From the IMG/VR virus record IMGVR_UViG_3300029058_000046: a stretch of 21,468 nucleotides of DNA; one strand, given 5' to 3'. Below the pieces are notes generated by a model. The model saw only the letters and a program-made list of their open reading frames with translations, searched no databases and was not told where the DNA came from. Every line of letters begins with the position of its first letter. Position 1 is the first letter of the stretch. The translations under genes were made by a program, and so were the position numbers. The stretch is from a virus (lineage: Duplodnaviria; Heunggongvirae; Uroviricota; Caudoviricetes). Below, one piece after another: positions 1 to 20,534 of this stretch.

Positions 1-2868
1 ACTGCTGAATCCGCTGCGACCCGTGCGGAAGCTGCTGCTGATCGTGCTGAAGAGATTGCCGGTGCAGTTGCGATGGAAGACGCAAGCCTTACAACTAAAG
101 GTGTTGTGAAACTTAGCAGTGCTGTCGACAGCACCAGTGAATCGCTGGCCGCAACGCCAAAAGCAGTTAAAGCAGCCAATGACAATGCGAATAGCAGGGT
201 GCCATCTAACCGAAAAGTTAACGGTAAAGCACTGACTGCGGATATCACATTAACGCCGAAAGATATTGGTACTTTAAATTCAGTAACGATGTCTTTCTCT
301 GGCGGGGCAGGGTGGTTCAAACTGGCTACGGTTACCATGCCACAAGCGAGTTCCATCGTTTACATCGCATTGATTGGTGGCGCTGGTTACAACGTCGGCT
401 CCCCACATCAGGCAGGCATTTCAGAACTGGTTCTACGAGCAGGCAATGGAAACCCCAAAGGGATTACAGGTGCTTTGTGGAAGCGTACAGCTGTCGGATT
501 AACGAATTTCGCCTGGATCAACACATCCGGCGATACATATGATATTTACGTTGAGATTGGCAATTATGCGACTCGTGTAAATATCCATTGGGATTGTACT
601 GCAAATGCGACAGTTTCTATTTATACATCGCCAACATATTCAGCTAGTAAGCCTTCCAGCGTTACCGATGGTGTTGTTTATACGATGTATAGCACACATC
701 AGAAACCGACGCCGTTAGATATTGGAGCACTGCCAACAACCGGAGGAACAGTTTCAGGTCCGTTGTCTGTTACTGGTGGGATCACCGGAACATTAAATGG
801 TAATGCAAGTACAGCAACGAAATTGCAGACGGCAAGATCTATCGGTGGAGTTGGTTTCGACGGTTCTGCAAATATCAACCTTCCAGGTGTAAATACTACG
901 GGTAATCAGAACACCACTGGTAATGCTGCAACTGCTACAAAACTTCAGACGGCAAGAACTATCGGCGGCGTGAGCTTTGATGGTACTGCGAATATTAATT
1001 TGCCAGGTGTTAATACGACTGGTAATCAGAATACAACGGGCAACGCGGCTACTGCTACGAAGTTGCAGACTGCGCGTACTATCAATGGGGTGTCGTTTGA
1101 CGGCTCGGCAAATATTTCCTTGTCGCCAGCAAATATAGGTTGCCCGGCATCTCCTACTGGTTGGTTAACTACAGGAAGTAATGGCGGAGCAATAACAACA
1201 GCACAGTTAGTGACGTTATTGCAAAATAATGGAGCATTTAACACAAAGTCATGGATTGCTCGATGTGCGTGGGCCTATGCCAATAGTGCAACCATACCAA
1301 ATAGTGAAACTGGTTGTGGCGTTATTCCATTGGCAGGAGCTGTTATAGAGGTATTTAATAACGGTAGTAGCTCAAACAATTATACGATCCGTATAACAAC
1401 GGCCACAACGACGAGTGTCTCTGGTGCTCTCACTAATGCGGAGTTTATCTATGTATTTAATGGCACAGATTATTCTCCGGGATGGCGAAGAGTATATAAC
1501 ACGAAAAACAAACCAACAGCCTCTGATGTCGGTGCATTACCTCTTACCGGTGGTACATTATCTGGAGGTTTGACATCTTCTGGCGAGATCATTTCAAAAT
1601 ATGCAAATGGTTTCCGCATTGCTTACGGTAGCTTTGGGTTCTTTATCCGTAATGATGGATCGAACACATATTTCATGCTAACAGCATCAGGAGACACATT
1701 AGGTTCATGGAACGGTTTGCGACCTATTACAATTAATAATACCAGCGGTGCTGTATCAATTGGTAATGGACTAAATGTGACTGGTGGCGTAAATGGTAGT
1801 TTGAACGGTAATGCTTCAACAGCTACGAAGTTGCAAACAGCGAGAAACATCAATGGTGTTAAGTTTGATGGCTCAGGCGATATCAACATTAATACATTGG
1901 TATCTCGTGGCCGAGTTACGGCGTTAAGCGGCTCTACTCAAGGCACTGCTGGCATTCAAATGTACGAGGCGTACAACAATAGCTACCCGACCATGTATGG
2001 CAACGTATTGCACATGAAAGGTGCGAGTGCTGCTGGTGAGGGAGAGTTGCTTATTGGCTGGAGTGGTACGAGCGGTGCACATGCGCCAGTTTTCATTCGC
2101 TCACGAAGAGATAACACAGGTGCGGCATGGTCAGCGTGGGCGCAGGTATATACCGCTAAGGATTCAATCCCTGGTGTGAATACAACTGGTAATCAGAACA
2201 CTACTGGTAATGCCGCAACCGCCACAAAATTGCAGACAGCAAGGAAAATTGCTGGTGTGGCGTTTGATGGCTCTGCCGATATAACTTTGACTGCGGCTAA
2301 CCTTAATGCTTACACGAAAACAGAGGTAACAAACCTTCTAAGTTCCTATGCAAGCAGATCATCACTGACAGGCTATAGTGGCAACCTGGATATTATTGCT
2401 GAAACACTGGTTGTCAAATCAGGCGGTAGTGGAGGGTTTGCTATATGGGATATTGGCACAACTACTAGCGGTGCCAATATGTACATTGATCCAAACCCAG
2501 GTATCAATACAGTTTGGCGTTCAACCTCTTCAAGGCGCTATAAAAAGGATATTGAAACATTACAAGATCGATATGCTGATGAACTTTTGTCATTAAGACC
2601 TGTTTGGTATCGTTCAATTTGTCGAGGTGACCGAAAGGATTGGGGGTATTACGGCCTTATTGCTGAAGAGGTTGGTGAGATTGCCCCGCAATATGTCCAT
2701 TGGCGTGAACCAACAAATAATGATTCTCCAGAAGATATTTCCTCAAATGGTATGGTCGCTGAAGGAGTGATGTATGAGCGTTTGGTTGTACCACTCATTC
2801 ATCATATTCAGCAATTGACCAAAAGGGTTGAGGAGCTTGAAACGAAGTTAAATTCACCTAAAGAATAA
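1..2868 (+). CDS. Phage tail fiber protein, 5' partial (frame 1 is open from base 1; the listed ATG at 73 is internal). C-terminal ~115 aa look like an S74-type intramolecular chaperone/autoproteolysis domain
   Basis: No stop in frame 1 from 1 to 2868. N-terminal segment KGVVKLSSAVDSTSESLAATPKAVKAAND is the conserved motif of phage tail fiber N-terminal domains. Gly/Thr/Asn-rich repeats follow. C-terminus STSSRRYKKDIETLQ...GLIAEEVGEIAP matches the Ser/Lys signature and G-[FL]-IA-[QE]-EV block of self-cleaving fiber chaperone domains (starts near 2521). Confidence 0.85.
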   Translation, partial: TAESAATRAEAAADRAEEIAGAVAMEDASLTTKGVVKLSSAVDSTSESLAATPKAVKAANDNANSRVPSNRKVNGKALTADITLTPKDIGTLNSVTMSFSGGAGWFKLATVTMPQASSIVYIALIGGAGYNVGSPHQAGISELVLRAGNGNPKGITGALWKRTAVGLTNFAWINTSGDTYDIYVEIGNYATRVNIHWDCTANATVSIYTSPTYSASKPSSVTDGVVYTMYSTHQKPTPLDIGALPTTGGTVSGPLSVTGGITGTLNGNASTATKLQTARSIGGVGFDGSANINLPGVNTTGNQNTTGNAATATKLQTARTIGGVSFDGTANINLPGVNTTGNQNTTGNAATATKLQTARTINGVSFDGSANISLSPANIGCPASPTGWLTTGSNGGAITTAQLVTLLQNNGAFNTKSWIARCAWAYANSATIPNSETGCGVIPLAGAVIEVFNNGSSSNNYTIRITTATTTSVSGALTNAEFIYVFNGTDYSPGWRRVYNTKNKPTASDVGALPLTGGTLSGGLTSSGEIISKYANGFRIAYGSFGFFIRNDGSNTYFMLTASGDTLGSWNGLRPITINNTSGAVSIGNGLNVTGGVNGSLNGNASTATKLQTARNINGVKFDGSGDININTLVSRGRVTALSGSTQGTAGIQMYEAYNNSYPTMYGNVLHMKGASAAGEGELLIGWSGTSGAHAPVFIRSRRDNTGAAWSAWAQVYTAKDSIPGVNTTGNQNTTGNAATATKLQTARKIAGVAFDGSADITLTAANLNAYTKTEVTNLLSSYASRSSLTGYSGNLDIIAETLVVKSGGSGGFAIWDIGTTTSGANMYIDPNPGINTVWRSTSSRRYKKDIETLQDRYADELLSLRPVWYRSICRGDRKDWGYYGLIAEEVGEIAPQYVHWREPTNNDSPEDISSNGMVAEGVMYERLVVPLIHHIQQLTKRVEELETKLNSPKE
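795..1127 (+). repeat. Tandem in-frame ~120-nt (40-aa) repeats inside the tail fiber gene; two full units and one partial, with dispersed extra copies near 1798-1880 and 2167-2285
   Basis: Unit NA(A/S)TATKLQTAR(S/T)IGGV(G/S)FDG(S/T)ANINLPGVNTTGNQNTTG recurs at protein level, but the nucleotide copies differ at many synonymous positions. Confidence 0.7.
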
Positions 2869-2880
2869 ACAACTTCAATC

Positions 2881-2903
2881 GGGGCTGGAACTAAACCAGC
2901 CCC
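2881..2903 (+). terminator. Stem-loop just after the tail fiber stop (8-bp GC-rich stem ggggctgg/ccagcccc, 7-nt loop); weak terminator or processing site, no U-tract
   Basis: Perfect inverted repeat read directly; followed by tgcttaaaag rather than a T run. Confidence 0.35.
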
Positions 2904-2928
2904 TGCTTAAAAGTATAAGGATATATTT

Positions 2929-3183
2929 ATGAGCTATGGTGCACAGGTTTGGTCGCCATCAAGACAGGAGATGGTCGATGCGTTGGCCCCTGTTTATTAC
3001 CTCGATTATTTTACTCCCTCTGGTTCAGGAAGTAGAACATATGAGGTTGAGGCGGGATTGGGAATCGACTATTACATAATGGACGTAACCAATGGAAAAT
3101 ACACAAGTCTTACGGTTTCTGGAAATACCATTTCGTGGTCTGGAGCTAGTGGTAATTTAAACATATTGGTTTTTCAAAAATAA
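2929..3183 (+). CDS. Hypothetical protein (84 aa), tail-fiber-associated by position
   Basis: ORF with aagga-like RBS upstream; stop overlaps the next start (TAATG at 3181-3185), suggesting translational coupling. No recognisable motif. Confidence 0.45.
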   Translation: MSYGAQVWSPSRQEMVDALAPVYYLDYFTPSGSGSRTYEVEAGLGIDYYIMDVTNGKYTSLTVSGNTISWSGASGNLNILVFQK

Positions 3184-3791
3184 TGTACGGAAGCAAGATA
3201 TATCGATCTGACGGGAAGGTCTGGATGTCTCCTTCTTTGTCTCCTATCGTTTTTCAGAGAAAGCAGGTTGTTTCTTTGTCCGGCGGGACAGAGTTTAACA
3301 CCCAAATATCTCCAGATCGTTCACCGATGATTTTTGTTGCCTATTCGAAAGCTGTTTCATTAATAGCCAACAGAATAGTGCGTAACAACCAGGTGATTTA
3401 CAGTTTCGGAGGTCAGGGTAGCGACTCTAGTGCCACGATATACGTATTTTCGAAAGGTATAGCCAAAAAAGAAACTTGGGGCATGAGTTTTTTCAATGCA
3501 CAAGGGGAGGAAATCTATAATACGGCAAATATCCCACTTTCATTTACCTTTCTTAATAATACGGAGTGGAACAGCTCTGGAGGGCATGTTTTTGATTACC
3601 CACCAGCGATAATCCCAACATATGCGAATGTGTTCGCTGTTCCAGTACCGGGCGGAGCCATGACAATGGTTTATGGATATGCGGCATATGGAAATACTGT
3701 TAGCTCGATATTCGTAAACCAACTTAATGGCGGCCATAGTTTTAGCGTAAATGGCAGAGTACCGGTAATAAATAGAAATCTGTATAACTGA
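3183..3791 (+). CDS. Hypothetical protein (202 aa), Ser/Gly/Asn-rich; possible fiber-associated or receptor-binding accessory protein
   Basis: Long ORF coupled to the upstream ORF, same strand as the fiber gene. No catalytic motif recognised. Confidence 0.5.
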   Translation: MYGSKIYRSDGKVWMSPSLSPIVFQRKQVVSLSGGTEFNTQISPDRSPMIFVAYSKAVSLIANRIVRNNQVIYSFGGQGSDSSATIYVFSKGIAKKETWGMSFFNAQGEEIYNTANIPLSFTFLNNTEWNSSGGHVFDYPPAIIPTYANVFAVPVPGGAMTMVYGYAAYGNTVSSIFVNQLNGGHSFSVNGRVPVINRNLYN

Positions 3792-3798
3792 TGAGTAA

Positions 3799-4032
3799 AT
3801 GATGAAAAGATTATTTCTAATAATAGCTGTTGTTCTCTCTCTTACTGGCTGCCAGAAATTGCCGACACCTATATGTTACGGTGAGGCTATCATTGGTGGA
3901 CAGGAGACAGTCATACCCATATATGCTGTTAAAAAAGTGAACGACTATACCTTATACAAAGCGGGTAGTATCTATAACTGGCGATGGGTAGGAGTAGGTG
4001 CTTTCTCATCAGTCCGTTGCAATGCTGAATGA
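3799..4032 (+). CDS. Small lipoprotein (77 aa precursor); possibly a Cor/Llp-type superinfection-exclusion lipoprotein
   Basis: N-terminus MMKRLFLIIAVVLSLTGCQK has a signal peptide and lipobox L-T-G-C. Size and position just downstream of fiber genes match Cor/Llp-type exclusion lipoproteins; the function is inferred, not shown. Confidence 0.6.
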   Translation: MMKRLFLIIAVVLSLTGCQKLPTPICYGEAIIGGQETVIPIYAVKKVNDYTLYKAGSIYNWRWVGVGAFSSVRCNAE

Positions 4033-4113
4033 TAGGTAGGTACACACCTACAATAAAAGGGTGAAATGTGATATAAATCCGCCATCCCGATTTGACTTTT
4101 CATGGAGGAAAAC

Positions 4114-4437
4114 ATGTCGAACGAGATGGCGAGCGTTACAACAGAGCAAGTTGAGCGTATTGCCGCGATCGTTGCTCGGGAGGTTGTTGGCAAATTAGGT
4201 AAAGAGCTACGTGAAGAAATTGGCCAGGAGGTCAATGATCAGCTGAAAACCTACTTTGGTGATATGACCCCGGCGCAACATAGTATTCAACACTCCAATC
4301 TGGACAAACTCCTTAACCGGTTAGATTCCATCTCCAGTGGGTTCTTTGGCGGCATTGTTTCTAAAATAACGTCGTTCATTATTACTGCACTGCTTTTGGG
4401 GTTAGCCGCGTATGGCGTAAAAAATGGACTGCAATAA
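4114..4437 (+). CDS. Holin-like small membrane protein (candidate first gene of a lysis cassette)
   Basis: GGAGG Shine-Dalgarno 6 nt before the ATG at 4114 (the track's ATG at 4102 has no RBS). Hydrophilic N-terminal part, one C-terminal hydrophobic segment (ITSFIITALLLGLAAYGV). Sits immediately upstream of the endolysin candidate. Confidence 0.45.
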   Translation: MSNEMASVTTEQVERIAAIVAREVVGKLGKELREEIGQEVNDQLKTYFGDMTPAQHSIQHSNLDKLLNRLDSISSGFFGGIVSKITSFIITALLLGLAAYGVKNGLQ

Positions 4438-4450
4438 CAGGAGATCAAGG

Positions 4451-5143
4451 ATGAAGACTCCGAGAGGCATTCGTAATAATAACCCCGGTAATCTTGATAA
4501 AGGATCACCGTGGCAAGGTCTGGTTGCGAATCCAGACGAACCGCGCTTTTGCACGTTTAAAGACCCTGTTTGGGGGATTCGTGCGCTGGCGGTGACTCTA
4601 ATTACCTACCACGACAAACGTCGCGCAAAAGACGGCTCAAGTATCGATACCATTCGTGAAGTTATTGAACGTTGGGCACCGCCGAATGAAAACAACACTG
4701 ACGCCTACATTAATGAGGTGTCTAAAGCCGTTGGTGTAACCGCAGACATGATCATCGATCTGCATGATTACGACATCCTTCGACCTTTGGTTGAGGCAAT
4801 CATTCGCCACGAGAATGGTCGAGGTCCACTAAAAACGCTGAACACCTGGTATGCGGCAGAAGTTATTGAGGAAGGTCTGCGTCGAGCCGGCGTCGTTAAG
4901 CCGGTGAAAACCGTGAAGGCTGTTCCTGTAACTAAAGAAACCGCAGGCGCAACTGTCACAGCAGGTATTGGTCTGGCGCAGCTTGCCGATGTTATGCCGC
5001 AGGTTTCCGCTGCTATGGATAAAGCACAAGGTCATATCTCTAGCGGGGATACAGTACGCATCATCTTCGGTATTGCCACTATTGTTGTGGCAGGATTCAT
5101 TGCCTGGTCGCAGGTAAGAAAACACCAGAAAGGGATGGTCTAA
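4451..5143 (+). CDS. Putative endolysin / peptidoglycan hydrolase with a C-terminal hydrophobic anchor
   Basis: AGGAG RBS 8 nt before the ATG at 4451. Conserved-looking N-terminal motif GIRNNNPGNL. C-terminal hydrophobic helix IIFGIATIVVAGFIAW. Flanked by a holin-like gene and a spanin-like pair. The enzymatic family is not assigned. Confidence 0.45.
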   Translation: MKTPRGIRNNNPGNLDKGSPWQGLVANPDEPRFCTFKDPVWGIRALAVTLITYHDKRRAKDGSSIDTIREVIERWAPPNENNTDAYINEVSKAVGVTADMIIDLHDYDILRPLVEAIIRHENGRGPLKTLNTWYAAEVIEEGLRRAGVVKPVKTVKAVPVTKETAGATVTAGIGLAQLADVMPQVSAAMDKAQGHISSGDTVRIIFGIATIVVAGFIAWSQVRKHQKGMV

Positions 5144-5144
5144 T

Positions 5145-5396
5145 ATGCTAGGCAGCCTGATGACAAAGCTAAAAGTTGCTTTGATTACGCTGGCTGCCGT
5201 TCTTTTCGTTCTTGTCGGCGCTTACACGATGGGCGGAAATGCGGCGCGACGAGCAATGGAAGAGAAGGCAAAACAGGAAGACAGAAAACGACTTCAAAGC
5301 ACAGTGGATGTCAAAAATGAAACGGTTAATGAAGTGCGGCAAAAAGATGCCTCTGGTGTTCATCGCGAGCTGTTTGATAAATGGGTGCGTGATTAA
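5145..5396 (+). CDS. Rz-like inner-membrane spanin (i-spanin) candidate
   Basis: 83 aa with N-terminal transmembrane segment (LKVALITLAAVLFVLVGAY) followed by a charged coiled-coil-like region. Start is 1 nt after the endolysin stop. Confidence 0.55.
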   Translation: MLGSLMTKLKVALITLAAVLFVLVGAYTMGGNAARRAMEEKAKQEDRKRLQSTVDVKNETVNEVRQKDASGVHRELFDKWVRD

Positions 5397-5544
5397 GACG
5401 CAGGCTCCAGGCGTGCTATTCTGCGATGCTGCAAATCCTATTTATGTGAGTAGAGAGGATTTTATGACTGAGGAAACGGAGCGACAGTTGCTTATCCACA
5501 ATACGATAGGTGAAAGGCTGTGTGAGTGGGGGCACCTGAACTGA
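5317..5544 (+). CDS. Rz1-like outer-membrane lipoprotein spanin (o-spanin) candidate, starting inside the Rz-like gene in the +1 frame and running past its end
   Basis: Out-of-frame ORF overlapping the 3' part of 5145-5396. Product has a short signal peptide and lipobox (MKRLMKCGKKMPLVFIAS-C). Start codon uncertain (5308, 5317 or 5329). Confidence 0.4.
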   Translation: MKRLMKCGKKMPLVFIASCLINGCVIKTQAPGVLFCDAANPIYVSREDFMTEETERQLLIHNTIGERLCEWGHLN

Positions 5545-5768
5545 GTCGATGATTGATGAGTGGTCTCAGTTTACCTTTTATCCTAAAGATGGCATCTTCA
5601 CTCATATACACGCCTGTTCACTCAAGCTCATGTTGAATCATTTAGTAATTTGATGTAGATTTATTAGGCATCCACGTAAGTGGGCACATACAGGCTACGC
5701 ATCCTCGTAGCCTTCAACCCCGAGAGGGGTGCCGCAATGACACTTGTGTTAACGGCTAAGGTGGACAC

Positions 5769-6152
5769 ATGCTGAACGAGAAACGTTCTATACAAACTAT
5801 TCGCGATTGCACGAGTATTATCGAGACTCATGTGCTGAATCAGCACAAGCTTGAAGTACGTAAGCTCAATAATGACGCTATTGAACCGGAAGACTCACGC
5901 TTCATCGTTACCTTCAAAGACGATGTTGAGCGCGCTGGTGCAAGCGTGAAGCCATTAGCTGAAGCAATTTACCTGAATGGTCGTGTTCGTTTTGTAGTCA
6001 AGCCAGCTAAACAGTACCCTGAGCTGTCTCGTTTTATCGAGGCTTTTTCGGAGGTTATTGAACATTCTATTCGCCGCTTCTTACGCAATCATGGTAGCAT
6101 TGTCAGCACGGTTAAGGCTGATGATTCTGCTACAAAATGGCTCCTACACTAG
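5769..6152 (+). CDS. Hypothetical protein (127 aa)
   Basis: ATG preceded by AAGGTGG Shine-Dalgarno; 3' end overlaps the next ORF by 16 nt. No recognisable motif. Confidence 0.55.
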   Translation: MLNEKRSIQTIRDCTSIIETHVLNQHKLEVRKLNNDAIEPEDSRFIVTFKDDVERAGASVKPLAEAIYLNGRVRFVVKPAKQYPELSRFIEAFSEVIEHSIRRFLRNHGSIVSTVKADDSATKWLLH

Positions 6153-6889
6153 ATAGCGCATATTCAAAAGATCTAAGCGAGTTTCCTCATAAAGGGGAGA
6201 CTCGTGTTGTTCGTTTTGGCTTTCTTATCAATGAAGCCTCCCTCTATAAAATCTCAGAAATTGAAATCATTGAACCAGAAGATGACATTTGCCTGTATGT
6301 CTCTATGGAACTTGTAGGTGCGCGCGACCAAGGCGACCTGAGCGAATTCATCTTAGATCGAGCGGATGAAGATGCCCCTGAAGAAGAGATTATCAAAGAG
6401 GTGCTCCAGTCCGGGCTTCTGGACGAAAACAAAAATACGATCGCTGGTAGGATAGCTCTGCGTGAATATAGTTTTGTTGAAGACGGTAATGAGATCGAAT
6501 GTTACCAGGTAGCCGGTGTCGAAACTGTCAGAGAGCGTCGTCAGCGAGGATTGTGTCACCGTACCTATCTCTTTCTTCTTCATTGGTATGAGCATTTAGT
6601 CTGCGACGATACACAAACCATTCCTGGTGCTAAGATCTGGGCAGGGCCTCTCATGCGAACCGGCGATGTGCGTATATACAATGCCAAAACAGAAACGTTC
6701 GAGGATGTGTTAGGCGAGTACGGGATGGGGAAAGAAACCGGATTTTTGCCGTGGAACAGAGGATTGTTGCTTGATGCAGAGTTAAGCTCTTGGCTCCCAA
6801 ACAAAGTGCAAGTTAACGTTCAGAAATTTATCGTACTTATCATCTCCCGCAAAACAAGAACTCCAGTAGGTTTATACCTAAAAGATTAA
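6137..6889 (+). CDS. Hypothetical protein (250 aa), acidic, no recognised domain
   Basis: Long ORF overlapping the preceding gene, followed directly by a strong intrinsic terminator. Confidence 0.6.
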   Translation: MAPTLDSAYSKDLSEFPHKGETRVVRFGFLINEASLYKISEIEIIEPEDDICLYVSMELVGARDQGDLSEFILDRADEDAPEEEIIKEVLQSGLLDENKNTIAGRIALREYSFVEDGNEIECYQVAGVETVRERRQRGLCHRTYLFLLHWYEHLVCDDTQTIPGAKIWAGPLMRTGDVRIYNAKTETFEDVLGEYGMGKETGFLPWNRGLLLDAELSSWLPNKVQVNVQKFIVLIISRKTRTPVGLYLKD

Positions 6890-6893
6890 AAAT

Positions 6894-6920
6894 CAGGCGA
6901 CTTTGGTCGCCTTTTTTGTT
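6894..6920 (+). terminator. Rho-independent terminator
   Basis: caggcgac-tttg-gtcgcc stem-loop followed by TTTTTTGTT, immediately after the stop at 6889. Confidence 0.75.
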
Positions 6921-7015
6921 AACAGCCATTGATTCTCGCCTAAAAATTCTAAGGCAGCACCTACCATTTAACCTTTACACCACAGCCGTAGGCATTTAGG
7001 CTATATCACATATAA

Positions 7016-15335: not shown

Positions 15336-15806
15336 GTGAAAGCTGATTTGTCAAAAATCCCTTCTATTTCAGGAAATAACGGTTATTCACTTCGTTGTGA
15401 GGAAGTAAAGATAAACGGTGAGTCGACATATTGCAGCTATTCCGTTTGCCAGCACACCATTCTTGCCTTCAAAGAAAACCGTCTTCCTCGAACTTCTTTC
15501 CAGTCGTGCGCAACCGCTATTAAAGCAGGCAAATGCAAGGCGTTAAAAATGATGGTTGAAGAGATTCGTAAAGGAGAATCTCTGTATTTCGAAGATATGA
15601 CCGCGCTCATTAAGGAGGTTGAAGAACGGAATAAACAAGCCAGAACTATAAAACGAAAACGTGACAGTGTAACGATTAATAGCATGGTTAAGAAGAGCAC
15701 CACATCACAAACAGCGATCACTGACGTGTATGCGGCGTTGCTTGAAGAAACAACAAAAGAAACACATGAGCAAATCGATCAACATATGGAGGTAAAACAA
15801 CAATGA
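15336..15806 (+). CDS. Hypothetical protein with Cys-rich N-terminal region and basic C-terminal tail; stop overlaps the ligase start
   Basis: ORF track start is GTG at 15336 and the first in-frame ATG is far downstream, so the start is uncertain. Cys pattern C..C...C....C..C may bind metal. Confidence 0.45.
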   Translation: MKADLSKIPSISGNNGYSLRCEEVKINGESTYCSYSVCQHTILAFKENRLPRTSFQSCATAIKAGKCKALKMMVEEIRKGESLYFEDMTALIKEVEERNKQARTIKRKRDSVTINSMVKKSTTSQTAITDVYAALLEETTKETHEQIDQHMEVKQQ

Positions 15807-17125
15807 AAAAGTTGATCGCACTTAAGCATAAGCTGGACGAAATGAAAGCTATGGGAACCAATGCAAAAAAAGAGGCATTGGCCAACATGGATGACTTCGA
15901 GCAAAGCATGGTTTCATTGATGCTCAACCCTTTCATCCGTTTTGGGGTAAAAAAATACAAAGTGGCAGAGCCGCTTAGTGAGTCCGTCCCAAGTGACGAA
16001 AAAGCCATTGATATACTGAATAAGCTGGCCTCTCGCGAGCTGACGGGGAACGCAGCAATAGTTGCTGTTGAGTCTATCGTGGCGTCAATGTGCGCCGATG
16101 GGCAGGACGTCTTCCGTCGTTTCCTCTTAAAAGATCCGAAAGCTGGCGTTGGGATTAGCCTATGTAACAAGGTTTTTGAAAATCCCATTCCGAAATTCGA
16201 GGTGCAGCTGGCGTCACCGTATAAAGAAAAAGGCGACAAATACCCCTTCAAGCCAAACCCTAAAGCAAAATGGCCGATGATTGGCAGCCTTAAGCTCGAT
16301 GGTTTGCGAGTAATTTGCGAGGTTATTGTTGACGAAGAAGAGGTTAACTTCCTTTCTCGTACTGGTAATCCAATCACGTCTCTCGATCACCTAAAGCCAG
16401 CCATGCTCGAATTAGGCAAACTTTCAGGCCACAAACACATCTTCTTCGATGGTGAAGGCACAGCCGGTTCATTTAACCAGTCCGTATCTGCATTGCGCAA
16501 AAAGAACGTGCAGGCAATTGGCGCTATTTATCATGTTTTCGACTTCTTCCTACCGGAATGGCGAGCACAGGCTAAATCCAAAGAGTATGCAAAGACAGGT
16601 ATGAAGCTGAAAGAGCGCCTGGCTATGCTCGTGGCGTTGTTCAAAAACGATCGCAGTGAAGGCTACGCACAAGACATTCACCTGCATCCGTTCTACATCA
16701 TCCATAGCCACGAAGACTTCATCGAACGCTTCATGAAACGCCTGGACGATAACGAAGAAGGGGAGATGGGCAAAGATCCGAACTCTGTTTACGAATTTAA
16801 ACGTACCCGCAGCTGGTGGAAGTTAAAAGACGAAGATTCAGAAGATGGTGAAATTATCGATTTTGAGCCGGGCGACCCGGACTCTGGTTTTGCCAACACG
16901 CTTGGAAAAATTGTTATTCGTCTTGAAAACGGCGTCATCGTTCGTGCGAGCGGCATTAAGCATAAATATCTGGACGAGATCTGGAACAACAAAGAGAAGT
17001 ACCGTGGTCGTATTGTCGAGGTTCATTGTCACGAGAAAACACCTGATGGCAGCTTACGCCACCCACGACTGAAATGGCCGCGTTGCTTACGCGATACAGA
17101 AGATCGAATCGGAGATAAAGAATGA
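15803..17125 (+). CDS. ATP-dependent DNA ligase
   Basis: Adenylation motif I KLDGLR (in IGSLKLDGLRVI), motif III-like FFDGEG, motif V-like WWKLK. GGAGG RBS 10 nt upstream. Confidence 0.85.
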   Translation: MKKLIALKHKLDEMKAMGTNAKKEALANMDDFEQSMVSLMLNPFIRFGVKKYKVAEPLSESVPSDEKAIDILNKLASRELTGNAAIVAVESIVASMCADGQDVFRRFLLKDPKAGVGISLCNKVFENPIPKFEVQLASPYKEKGDKYPFKPNPKAKWPMIGSLKLDGLRVICEVIVDEEEVNFLSRTGNPITSLDHLKPAMLELGKLSGHKHIFFDGEGTAGSFNQSVSALRKKNVQAIGAIYHVFDFFLPEWRAQAKSKEYAKTGMKLKERLAMLVALFKNDRSEGYAQDIHLHPFYIIHSHEDFIERFMKRLDDNEEGEMGKDPNSVYEFKRTRSWWKLKDEDSEDGEIIDFEPGDPDSGFANTLGKIVIRLENGVIVRASGIKHKYLDEIWNNKEKYRGRIVEVHCHEKTPDGSLRHPRLKWPRCLRDTEDRIGDKE

Positions 17126-17301
17126 TGCTCGGCTGGATGATTGCATTTTTAGCAGTTGGTTTTTTCATCGGTATTGTGGTGATGTCCAGTTGCATTAATG
17201 ACTACATTAAAAACGGTGTTATAGAAAGACGCGGTCGCATTTATCGCATTGTAGAAATAACCAACACCGTGAAGGAGATTAAGGATGATCGTATTAAGTA
17301 A
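17122..17301 (+). CDS. Small membrane protein (59 aa), below the ORF-track cutoff; paralog of the ORF at 17497-17649
   Basis: ATG overlaps the ligase stop (ATGA); GGAGA RBS. N-terminal TM helix (WMIAFLAVGFFIGIVVM) and C-terminal motif RGRIYRIVEIT shared with the 17497 ORF. Confidence 0.4.
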   Translation: MMLGWMIAFLAVGFFIGIVVMSSCINDYIKNGVIERRGRIYRIVEITNTVKEIKDDRIK

Positions 17302-17500
17302 ACGGGAGAAGGAAACGCTTCATGAAATCAGTAAGTGGCCGGAGTTCCCTGAGTACTGGAAGCCTAAAACGCGAGCTAAGTTAGAGCGTTTAGGGTTGGT
17401 TGCAAACGTTTCTGAAACGAAGTGTTCGGCCAACTACCAGTTAACTGATAAAGGGAAAGTATTGCTACAGCAATTAGTAGAATCAGGAGTGTTAAAATGA
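17285..17500 (+). CDS. Hypothetical small protein (71 aa)
   Basis: AAGGAG RBS before the ATG at 17285; overlaps both neighbours. Confidence 0.45.
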   Translation: MIVLSKREKETLHEISKWPEFPEYWKPKTRAKLERLGLVANVSETKCSANYQLTDKGKVLLQQLVESGVLK

Positions 17501-17649
17501 TTCCATACATCTCATTAGCTTTTATGGGTGGCTTCCTTATCGGCTTCGGCATCTGTCGTGACTTAATTAAGCAGGAACTTAAAACCAAAACACTGTGCAT
17601 CGGAAAGCGTGTGTATCGGGTAGTTCATGAAACAAAGGTGAGAAAATGA
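17497..17649 (+). CDS. Small membrane protein (50 aa), paralog of the ORF at 17122-17301
   Basis: ATGA start/stop overlap with the upstream ORF. Shares AF..GF.IG, C.D.IK and G(K/R)R(V/I)YR(V/I)V.ET motifs with the 59-aa ORF. Confidence 0.4.
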   Translation: MIPYISLAFMGGFLIGFGICRDLIKQELKTKTLCIGKRVYRVVHETKVRK

Positions 17650-17936
17650 GCAATTTAACTTCTTGGGAATGGTGGTTGGCAACCTATTTTATGGCAGCCG
17701 GAGTCGCATTCGCTTTTTACGTAGGGCAGTTAGTCGTAAAACTGCTGCTGATTAAATTTGCTAGCCATAAACGTATTGATGATGGCCTGTGGCGTCTTGG
17801 TACCCTTGTGGAAACTCGCTACGGGCAACTTAATGAGAACGAAACCATTACTATCCAAGCGAAACGATTCACTGCCACCATCACAAGAACACCTGATCGT
17901 AGAGTGGCCTTGATCAAAAAAGTCACAACCGAATAA
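17646..17936 (+). CDS. Membrane protein (96 aa)
   Basis: ATGA overlap with the upstream ORF, AGGTGA RBS, N-terminal TM helix (WWLATYFMAAGVAFAFYVGQLVV). Confidence 0.45.
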   Translation: MSNLTSWEWWLATYFMAAGVAFAFYVGQLVVKLLLIKFASHKRIDDGLWRLGTLVETRYGQLNENETITIQAKRFTATITRTPDRRVALIKKVTTE

Positions 17937-18140
17937 AAACATTTCGATAAGTATTTACTTACCTATCTTTTATGTATAAGATGACTTTGTTTTCGTTGAG
18001 ACGCGACTGTTTGAACTTAAATACAAGTGCAAACGAAGAAGTCTATCTGGCAGTAGCCTAATAAGCCAAACACCAGCGAGGTCAGTTTCCAGCCTCGTTA
18101 CCGAAATGGGACACACTGAGCGAGTGTGATTGCAGAACGC

Positions 18141-18164
18141 AGGAGGGAACATTCATGTTCCCTC
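18141..18164. other. 24-nt palindrome GGAGGGAACATTCATGTTCCCTCC; a Shine-Dalgarno-like GGAGGG paired to its complement around an ATG
   Basis: Perfect 11-bp arms read directly. The ATG in the loop opens only a 6-codon ORF (MFPPMK). Confidence 0.4.
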
Positions 18165-18172
18165 CGATGAAG

Positions 18173-18247
18173 TAACAGAATGGGCGGTTGGTATATTTTC
18201 AACTCCATATGACTCCCGGATTCTTAGCCACTGACCGCCCATCCTGT
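18173..18247. other. Long hairpin D: 15-bp stem (aacagaatgggcggt / accgcccatcctgtt, one mismatch) with ~45-nt loop
   Basis: Inverted repeat read directly, in an ORF-free region upstream of the tRNA cluster. Confidence 0.4.
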
Positions 18248-18326
18248 TACGTCATTTTGTTCAATTATGTCGTTTATACTGGGTTAAAAAGCGGCGACGT
18301 AGCCCGGCTGGTATGGTTAGCCAGCA

Positions 18327-18448
18327 CACAACGTTGAGGCCATTACATTTTTATCAATTCTAAGGTTCTATTCACAGAGATACCGGCGAGCGTTGATATG
18401 TAACATGTTGGGCAAACATTCAATCGGAGTAGTGGCCTCAACGTTGTG
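18327..18448. repeat. Hairpin element A: ~20-bp stem (CACAACGTTGAGGCCATTAC / GTAGTGGCCTCAACGTTGTG) around an ~82-nt loop
   Basis: Arms complementary at 18 of 20 positions. Terminal CACAAC...GTTGTG frame shared with hairpins B and C. Confidence 0.45.
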
Positions 18449-18718
18449 AAGACGGGATTGTTGTGTAGGTTTAACCACTGTTGCCATTGGTGCCTGTTTT
18501 CACAACAAATGATTCCATACATCACATTGTATAAATTACAAAGTAGGTGCTGTCCTCAGAAACATCATCTACTTAAAGATTTTGCCTTCTACTATTGAGC
18601 GAAGTCGAAAGCGTCTGGCACTAACGAAAAAAAAGTGCAAGTAGCGGTGCGTTTCCTGGCAGAAACTAAACCGTCGCGATTGGCACTGTTGAGTAATAAA
18701 TACTGGCAGTGCTGAATT

Positions 18719-18793
18719 GATGGTGTAGCTCAGCGGTAGATCAGTTGGCTGTTAACCAACTGGTCGGTGGTTCGAATCCACCCACCATCGCCA
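18719..18793 (+). tRNA. tRNA-Asn (anticodon GUU), CCA encoded
   Basis: Manual fold: acceptor gatggtg/caccatc, anticodon stem gttgg/ccaac with loop CTGTTAA, T-arm ggtgg-ttcgaat-ccacc, discriminator G, CCA. The D-stem has one mismatch. Confidence 0.75.
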
Positions 18794-18798
18794 ATTTA

Positions 18799-18885
18799 GG
18801 GGAGTTAGTCCGTAGAGGTAGCGGTGTAGACTGTAAATCTACTGTCATGGCGACTCGGGTGGTTCGACTCCATCACTCCCCACCA
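18799..18885 (+). tRNA. tRNA-Tyr (anticodon GUA), class II with long variable arm, CCA encoded
   Basis: Acceptor ggggagt/actcccc, anticodon stem-loop gtaga-CTGTAAA-tctac, ~15-nt variable arm, T-loop ttcgact, CCA. Starts 5 nt after tRNA-Asn. Confidence 0.8.
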
Positions 18886-18889
18886 AATT

Positions 18890-18965
18890 GCCGGTTTAGC
18901 TCAGTTGGTAGAGCAGTCGCTTTGTAAGCGAATGGCCAGCGGTTCAAGTCCGTTAACCGGCACCA
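18890..18965 (+). tRNA. tRNA-Thr (anticodon UGU), CCA encoded
   Basis: Canonical D-arm tagctcagttggtagagc, anticodon loop TTTGTAA, T-arm agcgg-ttcaagt-ccgtt, acceptor gccggtt/aaccggc, CCA. Starts 4 nt after tRNA-Tyr. Confidence 0.85.

Positions 18966-19386: not shown

Positions 19387-20534
<1,148 letters not shown>

Follow-up and report, generated by a model that had tools for sequence, protein, structure and literature searches.

Organization of the locus

The DNA analysed here is a 21,468-nt stretch from a member of the Caudoviricetes (IMG/VR record IMGVR_UViG_3300029058_000046), referred to below as the window and numbered from its first letter; our subject is a cassette of four small genes located directly downstream of an ATP-dependent DNA ligase gene. 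Comparison of the region 17100–17950 with Escherichia coli plasmid pM160133_p3 (NZ_CP022167.1) revealed 100% identity, and phage Cyrano was 97% identical to the window. The same region was matched by 752 plasmids of PLSDB, from Klebsiella, Escherichia, Enterobacter, Salmonella (including pHCM2-type plasmids), Yersinia pestis (pMT1), Citrobacter, Cronobacter and other genera; among the matches listed, sizes were about 100–115 kb and nearly all plasmids were non-mobilizable. Judged from these identities and PLSDB matches, the window is therefore that of an SSU5-type phage-plasmid. To this type belong the Salmonella Typhi plasmid pHCM2, the Y. pestis plasmid pMT1 and hundreds of plasmids from E. 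coli and Klebsiella, of which some carry resistance genes. Elements of this type are frequent in clinical Enterobacterales, and hardly any of their small genes has been assigned a role.

Upstream of the cassette, on the same strand, are genes for a DnaB-like helicase, a primase and the ligase. The ligase gene is the last recognisable replication gene of the operon, and the cassette is translationally coupled to it. The ligase and the four co-directional open reading frames (ORFs) that follow it are as given below, together with the PHROG match and the Kyte-Doolittle hydrophobicity maximum (KD19) of each ORF and the dN/dS of ORF1 to ORF3.

15803–17125, + strand: ATP-dependent DNA ligase, 440 amino acids (aa), found as an ORF and annotated as DNA ligase in Cyrano, SSU5, pJN2-26 and pM160133_p3
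17125–17301, + strand: ORF1, predicted bitopic membrane peptide, 58 aa (phrog_4381, E=5.2e-39; KD19 2.55; dN/dS 0.08–0.17)
17285–17500, + strand: ORF2, soluble basic protein, 71 aa (phrog_4054, E=5e-45; KD19 maximum 0.21; dN/dS ~0.08)
17497–17649, + strand: ORF3, predicted bitopic membrane peptide, 50 aa (phrog_6302, E=8e-37; KD19 1.84; dN/dS 0.14–0.31)
17646–17936, + strand: ORF4, predicted bitopic membrane protein, 96 aa (phrog_4507, E=8e-58; KD19 2.00)

The string of four small, translationally linked genes that a sequence-only reading of this DNA had placed after the ligase is present. As that reading had remarked, ORF1 was missing from the default ORF track, the only reason being that it is shorter than 60 aa. 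The start proposed for it at 17122, which would give 59 aa, did not hold, as this codon is CTG in SSU5, pMT1, Enterobacter and Cronobacter and the ATG found there is specific to the window; the ATG that follows at 17125 is the conserved start, which RefSeq also uses (58 aa). The proposal that ATGA overlaps link all of the genes was correct for the ORF2/ORF3 and ORF3/ORF4 junctions, whereas the ligase/ORF1 junction reads ATGATG and ORF1 overlaps ORF2 by 17 nt. GGAG-type ribosome-binding sites are kept 5′ of every start in all lineages.

Conservation of the four reading frames

All four frames were intact in nine relatives (Cyrano, SSU5, pJN2-26, pMT1, and plasmids of Salmonella, Enterobacter, Klebsiella michiganensis and Cronobacter), with amino acid identities of 59–78%, compared with 84–91% for the ligase where intact. 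Conservation of the frames in related genomes, on which the sequence-only reading had made the genes depend, was thus observed, with dN/dS values of 0.08–0.31 for each ORF (pairwise Nei-Gojobori estimates against the relatives, where dS was unsaturated). Gene order 3′ of the ligase was the same in Cyrano, SSU5, pJN2-26, pMT1 and the Salmonella, Enterobacter, Klebsiella and Cronobacter plasmids, and no antisense frame over the cassette was conserved among the relatives. Each of ORF1 to ORF4 matched its PHROG family over the whole protein and the whole profile, all four families being annotated as "unknown function". The products of SSU5 genes gp045–048, Cyrano CYRAN_37–39 and the corresponding hypothetical proteins of pMT1 and pHCM2 belong to these same families, with no differences. 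As judged by this conservation, the four ORFs are genuine protein-coding genes.

Annotation of the cassette has gaps. ORF1 is uncalled in Cyrano (OV696614) although its frame is intact, and ORF3 is missing from several plasmid gene tables, including that of the 100%-identical pM160133_p3, in which its frame is also intact. No paper treating the four genes was found in the literature searched. What was already known is that the genes are catalogued as hypothetical families; new, though modestly so, are the evidence that they are real genes and, as described below, the likely paralogy of two of them, the core pair and the class of expression. In kind, the cassette is ordinary, consisting of small phage-encoded bitopic membrane proteins such as occur in early or middle operons.

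Predicted membrane topology

Hydrophobicity and sequence comparison supported the view that two of the cassette products are related peptides with a single membrane pass, that the 71-aa product is soluble and that the 96-aa product is a membrane protein. The KD19 maxima of ORF1, ORF3 and ORF4 are above the usual Kyte-Doolittle threshold, and each of these proteins has a single N-terminal hydrophobic segment that no basic residue precedes, followed by a basic C-terminal part. By the positive-inside rule, on which alone the topology is based, ORF1, ORF3 and ORF4 would be bitopic inner-membrane proteins in an N-out/C-in orientation, with 0–8 residues predicted on the periplasmic side. Family alignments of the three proteins revealed that conservation is strongest in the tails and not in the transmembrane (TM) segments, suggesting that the cytoplasmic tails are the functional parts. 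Scans of ORF1, ORF3 and ORF4 against Pfam, NCBIfam and PADLOC gave no significant match.

ORF1 and ORF3 are likely paralogues

The TM segment of ORF1 spans approximately residues 2–25 and is followed by a tail containing RRGR-[IV]-YRI-[VI]-x-[IV]-T. In ORF3, the TM segment comprises residues 1–20, and the tail, KQELKTKTLxIGKRVYRVVHET, is almost invariant; residues G36, K37, R38, V39, Y40, R41, V43, H44 and E45 are invariant in the family alignment. Two motifs had been put forward as shared by these peptides. One of them, C.D.IK, is probably a coincidence, because its spacing differs (C-x-x-D-x-I-K and C-x-D-x-I-K), members of the ORF3 family differ at both the Cys and the Asp, and neither BLASTP nor hhalign aligns it. 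The other, G-(K/R)-R-(V/I)-Y-R-(V/I)-V-.-E-T, fits ORF3 alone when taken as written, whereas a core of it, R-[VI]-Y-R-[VI]-V-x-x-T, is conserved in both families.

Pairwise comparison by BLASTP related ORF1 to ORF3 with E=6e-5 (31% identity over 45 residues), and hhalign related the two families with a probability of 83–86% and E values of 5e-6 to 9e-6 over 49–50 collinear columns. The hhalign score, 29.6, exceeded every score obtained when all columns were shuffled 150 times (mean 10.0, maximum 22.4) and when the TM and tail blocks were permuted separately in another 150 shuffles (mean 11.4, maximum 24.0). In addition, a single-copy peptide from a deeper lineage (see below) matched both ORF3 (E=4e-12) and ORF1 (E=2e-5). 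ORF4, which has a like architecture, matched neither family (hhalign E 0.05–0.1), indicating that the signal between ORF1 and ORF3 is more than that of a TM segment plus a basic tail. Searches for homologues of ORF1 and ORF3, which were k-mer-limited, returned SSU5-group proteins alone.

These results make it likely that ORF1 and ORF3 are diverged paralogues, as the sequence-only reading had proposed, with the sequences being too short for proof. The alternative, that convergence or chance accounts for the common R-[VI]-Y-R-[VI]-V motif and TM architecture, draws on the shortness of the sequences, the low Neff (1.6–1.9) and the tendency of TM segments to inflate similarity scores; when the TM segments were removed, only a 9-column motif aligned, and one of 150 shuffles reached the tail-only score. 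It is nevertheless unlikely in view of the full-length collinear profile match (E ~1e-5), which no shuffle equalled in either scheme, the distant single-copy peptide that matches both families while ORF4 matches neither, and the distance of only 200 nt between the two genes.

ORF2 is probably a small winged-helix protein

ORF2, which overlaps ORF1 by 17 nt and ORF3 by ATGA, gave only sub-threshold matches to hidden Markov models: 1) in Pfam, HTH_45 and EarA (both E ~0.06) and DUF3116, within a range of E 0.06–0.15, 2) in NCBIfam, SSO5209 (E 8e-3), and 3) in PADLOC, the C-terminal winged-helix region of Csa3/CARF proteins (E 1e-3). All of these matches are to winged-helix modules, and all lie below the curated cut-offs. 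A model of ORF2 made with AlphaFold2 (AF2) from the single sequence, which is of low confidence (predicted local distance difference test, pLDDT, 64), had a helix-helix-helix-wing-helix arrangement (H-H-H-beta-beta-H), with helices at residues 6–16, 27–36 and 55–67 and strands at 39–41 and 51–53. The best matches of this model found by Foldseek in the PDB were nearly all winged-helix proteins, mostly of the MarR type, none being significant (E>=0.12), and a comparison of ORF2 with PDB sequences gave no match. Taken together, profile matches and model suggest that ORF2 is probably a small winged-helix DNA-binding domain. Its predicted helix-helix-helix-wing topology is that of small single-domain winged-helix proteins, such as the DNA-binding core of MarR-type proteins, SSV1 F-93 and phage proteins of excisionase size; unlike these, ORF2 has no dimerisation domain, and all of its matches are below significance.

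A homologue of ORF2 with 38% identity is encoded by the unrelated 48-kb Klebsiella phage VLCpiS13f, between an anti-restriction gene and parB. It is followed by an ATGA-overlapping gene for a 38-aa peptide with a hydrophobic segment at its C-terminus, the pair being gp75–gp74 (positions 4001–4326 of locus L015). A winged-helix protein together with a small membrane peptide may thus be a recurrent two-gene unit.

ORF4 belongs to a narrow family

In ORF4, the TM segment (approximately residues 9–36) is followed by a juxtamembrane motif, F-A-S-x-K-R-I-D-D-x-L-W-R-L-G, that is invariant in the family alignment, and then by a predicted beta-hairpin. The AF2 model made from a 16-sequence alignment, also of low confidence (pLDDT 61), placed a helix at residues 6–60 and a hairpin at 67–80. 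When 1.84 billion representatives were searched with the ORF4 family profile, just 18 clusters were returned at E<=1e-3, and none fell outside this narrow family. Kinship of ORF4 to ORF1 and ORF3 through the likeness between L-W-R-L-G and V-Y-R-V-V was considered and rejected, the hhalign E values being 0.05–0.1 and the probability ~1%.

Many ORF4 homologues are named "C-type natriuretic protein" by RefSeq/PGAP. The name was rejected for ORF4, for which neither Pfam (E<=10) nor NCBIfam gave a matching family; no paper using the "natriuretic" name for phage proteins was found in the literature searched. The name is a propagated misnomer.

A core pair of ORF3 and ORF4

Distant relatives of ORF4 obtained by the exhaustive profile search led to five IMG/VR contigs (L016–L020; 64–110 kb) of a deeper lineage. 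In four of them (L016–L018 and L020), a ligase with 74% identity to that of the window is followed by a 56-aa orthologue of ORF3 (45–52% identity) and then by a homologue of ORF4 (31–34%), with overlaps between the ligase stop and the start of the ORF3-like gene and between the ORF3-like and ORF4-like genes. The same order was found in L019, which is cut near the contig start and retains only the 3′ end of the ligase. No match to ORF1 or ORF2 was detected within the fetched flanks of the five contigs. Since the order ligase, ORF3-like, ORF4-like is kept in this deeper lineage, which has neither ORF1 nor ORF2, ORF3 and ORF4 constitute the conserved core of the cassette, and by sequence comparison the ancient, stable unit is that of ligase, ORF3 and ORF4.

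By the same comparison, ORF1 and ORF2 would be later additions in the SSU5/E. coli/Klebsiella lineage, and ORF1 appears to have been often lost again. The numbers of PLSDB plasmids with a tblastn match were 532 for ORF1, 637 for ORF2, 682 for ORF3 and 653 for ORF4, and the shortfall of ORF1 was confined to Escherichia (139 plasmids vs 218 for ORF3) and Klebsiella (178 vs 241). In E. coli plasmid pEco_M21170_105, for instance, ORF1 is absent; ORF2 comes directly after the ligase, its start overlapping the ligase stop, and ORF3 and ORF4 follow in that order.

The 3′ side of the cassette (approximately 17560–18720 in the window) is a recombination and insertion hotspot. Rearrangements seen in individual elements include a truncation of ORF3 by IS4321 in one Enterobacter plasmid, the replacement of ORF3 and ORF4 from ORF3 residue 25 onward in a Klebsiella pneumoniae plasmid, and a Buttiauxella sequence in which only a remnant of ORF4 is left, followed by an ars operon. 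In pMT1 (L005), caf1R, the F1 capsule regulator gene, lies ~500 bp past ORF4, just 3′ of the conserved RNA described below; at the other end, IS100 (IstB listed) is directly 5′ of a ligase remnant that lacks the first 92 codons. The ligase of K. pneumoniae plasmid pKP2094-111K (L011) is reduced to its first 75 codons, with ORF3 and ORF4 following ~20 nt on. A separate case is protein P0114, a fusion in which ~33 N-terminal ligase residues precede the C-terminal portion of ORF4.

The cassette is silent in lysogens

Lysogen RNA-seq data re-analysed in the LF82 study (PMC9928086, Table S1) gave values of 5.9 for CYRAN_36 (ligase), 6.4 for CYRAN_37 (ORF2), 5.0 for CYRAN_38 (ORF3) and 7.6 for CYRAN_39 (ORF4). 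On the scale of that table, 5.0 corresponds to zero fragments per kilobase per million (fpkm), so that CYRAN_36 to CYRAN_39 are at ~0–3 fpkm in lysogens (PMC9928086). The terminase, connector and capsid genes of Cyrano have similar floor values, whereas genes expressed in lysogeny range from 150 to 7000 (PMC9928086). Since the ligase and ORF2 to ORF4 are at the floor, the cassette belongs to the repressed lytic replication programme and is not a set of lysogeny-expressed morons. No sigma-70-like promoter or intrinsic terminator was found on the + strand within the cassette (17122–17936); a weak terminator-like hairpin is located at 16868–16880, inside the ligase gene.

Possible role of the cassette

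The account that we prefer, and that we hold tentatively, is that the cassette supplies a membrane-tethered adaptor in lytic replication, most likely one that organises phage-plasmid DNA or the replisome at the membrane. The four genes form the 3′ tail of the replication operon and are translationally coupled to the ligase, and their products would be made only after the onset of the lytic replication programme. ORF3 and ORF4 would then sit together in the inner membrane, where their cytoplasmic parts, namely the R-V-Y-R-V-V strand of ORF3 and the FASHKRIDDGLWRLG helix of ORF4, would act as a tethered adaptor for a cytoplasmic partner. In this manner they could keep or arrange at the membrane either the replisome or phage-plasmid DNA undergoing replication and ligation, with ORF2 adding DNA binding and ORF1 a second anchor. 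The adaptor model is suggested by a link to the ligase that persists between deeply diverged lineages, by the basic nature of the tails, and by the putative winged-helix protein embedded in the cassette.

A working functional analogy for the ORF3/ORF4 anchors and the winged-helix ORF2 is provided by p16.7 and p1 of Bacillus phage phi29, which organise phage DNA replication at the membrane. Both are small early proteins encoded among replication functions; p16.7 is anchored by an N-terminal TM segment and acts on DNA through its cytoplasmic C-terminal part. The cassette would resemble it in the predicted N-terminal TM anchors and cytoplasmic C-termini, in the coupling to the ligase, and in a silence in lysogens like that of the ligase. 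However, p16.7 is ~130 aa long, with a coiled coil and a defined DNA-binding domain, and phi29 replicates by protein priming; PHROG and Pfam scans link none of ORF1 to ORF4 to p16.7 or p1, and the proposed analogy is a functional one only. It is quite unlikely, in our estimate, that ORF3 and ORF4, with the lineage-specific ORF1 and ORF2, form an unrecognised module by which SSU5-type phage-plasmid DNA is tethered to the inner membrane while being replicated and ligated in the lytic programme. Were this so, the module would be a Gram-negative, non-protein-primed counterpart of phi29 p16.7/p1 made of a 50-aa peptide and a 96-aa partner.

Several points weigh against the replication-adaptor account. 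No homologue of ORF1 to ORF4 has a known role. The AF2 models are of low confidence (pLDDT 61 for ORF4 and 64 for ORF2), the topology comes from the positive-inside rule only, and ORF2, the sole candidate DNA binder, is absent from the deeper lineage. Adjacency to the ligase may reflect shared timing only, small "filler" genes being frequent behind phage replication genes; ORF3 and ORF4 are kept in pKP2094-111K though its ligase is mostly deleted, and pMT1 keeps all four genes despite its IS100-interrupted ligase. In addition, the Cyrano RNA-seq covers lysogens only, in which early and late expression are not separable, and it holds no value for ORF1, which is unannotated there.

An alternative that is doubtful in itself and nearly as likely as the replication-organiser model is modulation of a host machine, host-takeover factors being among the possibilities named in the sequence-only reading. 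During lytic growth, the tethered tails would bind a host protein on the cytoplasmic side of the inner membrane and block or redirect it; candidate targets are the divisome, a protease such as FtsH, and a transporter. Many small early phage proteins are host-takeover factors, and gp56 of Bacillus phage SPO1, a TM-containing division inhibitor, is a precedent. Lytic-only expression, N-out/C-in anchors and conserved cytoplasmic motifs fit host takeover equally well, and the fast evolution of the cassette relative to the ligase (59–78% vs 84–91% identity) is typical of host-interaction genes; on the other hand, no known takeover factor was matched in Pfam, PHROGs, NCBIfam or PADLOC, and takeover leaves the strict synteny with the ligase unexplained. 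Superinfection exclusion, by which small inner-membrane proteins would stop DNA entry of a second phage in lytic growth, is improbable. Small inner-membrane proteins encoded in non-structural phage regions are the classic form of exclusion, with T4 Imm and Sp and HK97 gp15 as precedents, and ORF1, ORF3 and ORF4 share with these the predicted membrane location in a non-structural region, homology being absent. The genes are, however, silent in the lysogen, where a temperate element would gain most from exclusion; moreover, only 0–8 residues are predicted to be periplasmic, conservation sits in the cytoplasmic tails, and the PADLOC defence library gave no significant match.

Membrane-damaging peptides, i.e. 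a holin, an antiholin, or a toxin of the Hok or Kil type, are a very improbable explanation, and the suggestions of holin-like proteins and toxins made in the sequence-only reading are accordingly regarded as unlikely. Like class I–III holins and Hok/Gef toxins, the cassette peptides are small and have one TM segment and a C-terminus that is charged, features that are generic and do not discriminate, and ORF4 has a weak match to the holin family phrog_2359 (E=0.075). This sole holin match is insignificant and covers only 27 residues of the TM segment, and Pfam gave no holin. The cassette differs from holins and Hok/Gef toxins in being fused to a replication operon rather than lying in a lysis cassette or a stand-alone toxin locus: there is no adjoining endolysin or spanin, and no lysis gene is present among the features listed for the locus (the ligase 5′; a non-coding RNA and tRNAs 3′). 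As for a type-I or Hok-like toxin, no Hok/Gef match was found in Pfam at E<=10; neither a promoter nor a terminator of its own was seen in the cassette, nor an antisense arrangement, its stops and starts overlap within the operon, and it is silent in the plasmid state. The probable DNA-binding protein embedded in the cassette also argues against membrane damage.

Whichever role applies, real genes that belong to the lytic replication programme and of which only ORF3 and ORF4 are ancient offer a small, concrete target for functional study. The result is incremental alone; it would be weightier if the pair links replication to the membrane or strikes a host machine.

A structured RNA downstream of ORF4

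Directly 3′ of ORF4, alignment of the relatives revealed an unannotated structured RNA, which we judge to be of more interest than the four-gene cassette. Its elements are:

about 17948–18335, + strand: unannotated structured RNA, a candidate transfer-messenger RNA (tmRNA)-like molecule, recognised by conservation and covariation
17954–17959 (−35) and 17977–17982 (−10), + strand: promoter-like sequence TTTACT-N17-TAAGAT, from the alignment
18029–18058, + strand: candidate tag frame without a start codon, ANEEVYLAVA, with stop codons at 18059–18064, from the alignment

The RNA region (~400 nt) is better conserved than ORF1 to ORF4, with identities of 79–80% in SSU5 and Klebsiella elements and 71–73% in the deep lineage. 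In the latter it lies apart from the ORF4 homologue, ~0.5 kb 3′ of it in L019 and ~0.9–2.3 kb in L017, L018 and L020. The tag frame reads GCA AAC GAA GAA GTC TAT CTG GCA GTA GCC TAA TAA (18029–18064), and its counterparts in relatives are ANDNQYLAVA, ANEDTYLAVA and ANDTQYLAVA, the codons for D, Y and the last A showing synonymous changes; the SsrA tag of E. coli is ANDENYALAA. The stop codons of the tag are in a hairpin loop, and the last conserved hairpin is at 18307–18325. The structure comprises 86 predicted pairs, with 96.6% of cells paired and compensatory changes in 16 pairs; slid controls gave 0–4 pairs with such changes, and none of 500 shuffles reached 16.

The only Rfam match was between the tag region and beta_tmRNA, at a score below threshold (17.3 bits). 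ARAGORN at normal thresholds made no call for this RNA, and no credible tRNA-like domain was seen in it, either by eye or by ARAGORN at relaxed thresholds. A single genome scan with an exact 34-base pattern from the RNA matched only a Buttiauxella contig and a 108.7-kb Kluyvera contig, and no paper linking tmRNA with SSU5, pHCM2 or pMT1 was found in the literature searched. From its conservation, tag frame and covariation, the RNA may represent a phage-plasmid tmRNA of divergent or atypical form, or else an RNA derived from a tmRNA.

A palindrome, TAAGTATTTACTTA (17948–17961), overlaps the −35 element of the RNA promoter. In the deep lineage, the corresponding sequence is TAGGTATTTACCTA; both arms are changed, so that the symmetry is kept. 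The palindrome looks like a putative operator, i.e. a protein-binding site, rather than an RNA helix. Just past the RNA is a perfect 16-bp inverted repeat, CACAACGTTGAGGCCA / TGGCCTCAACGTTGTG, located at 18327–18342 and 18433–18448 with ~90 nt between the arms. In L019, the first arm has no counterpart, a protein gene beginning there.

Other features downstream

Further 3′ of the cassette are three tRNA genes followed by an IS-like insertion. The tRNA genes of the window (18719–18965) are for Asn, Tyr and Thr, in that order, and those of Cyrano are for Asn, Thr and Ser; in SSU5 and pJN2-26, only tRNA-Asn is annotated within the fetched stretches. The two ORFs found 3′ of the tRNA genes are:

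19387–20205, − strand: ORF of 272 aa
20232–20570, − strand: ORF of 112 aa

These two minus-strand ORFs look like the orfB/orfA pair of an IS3-family element.

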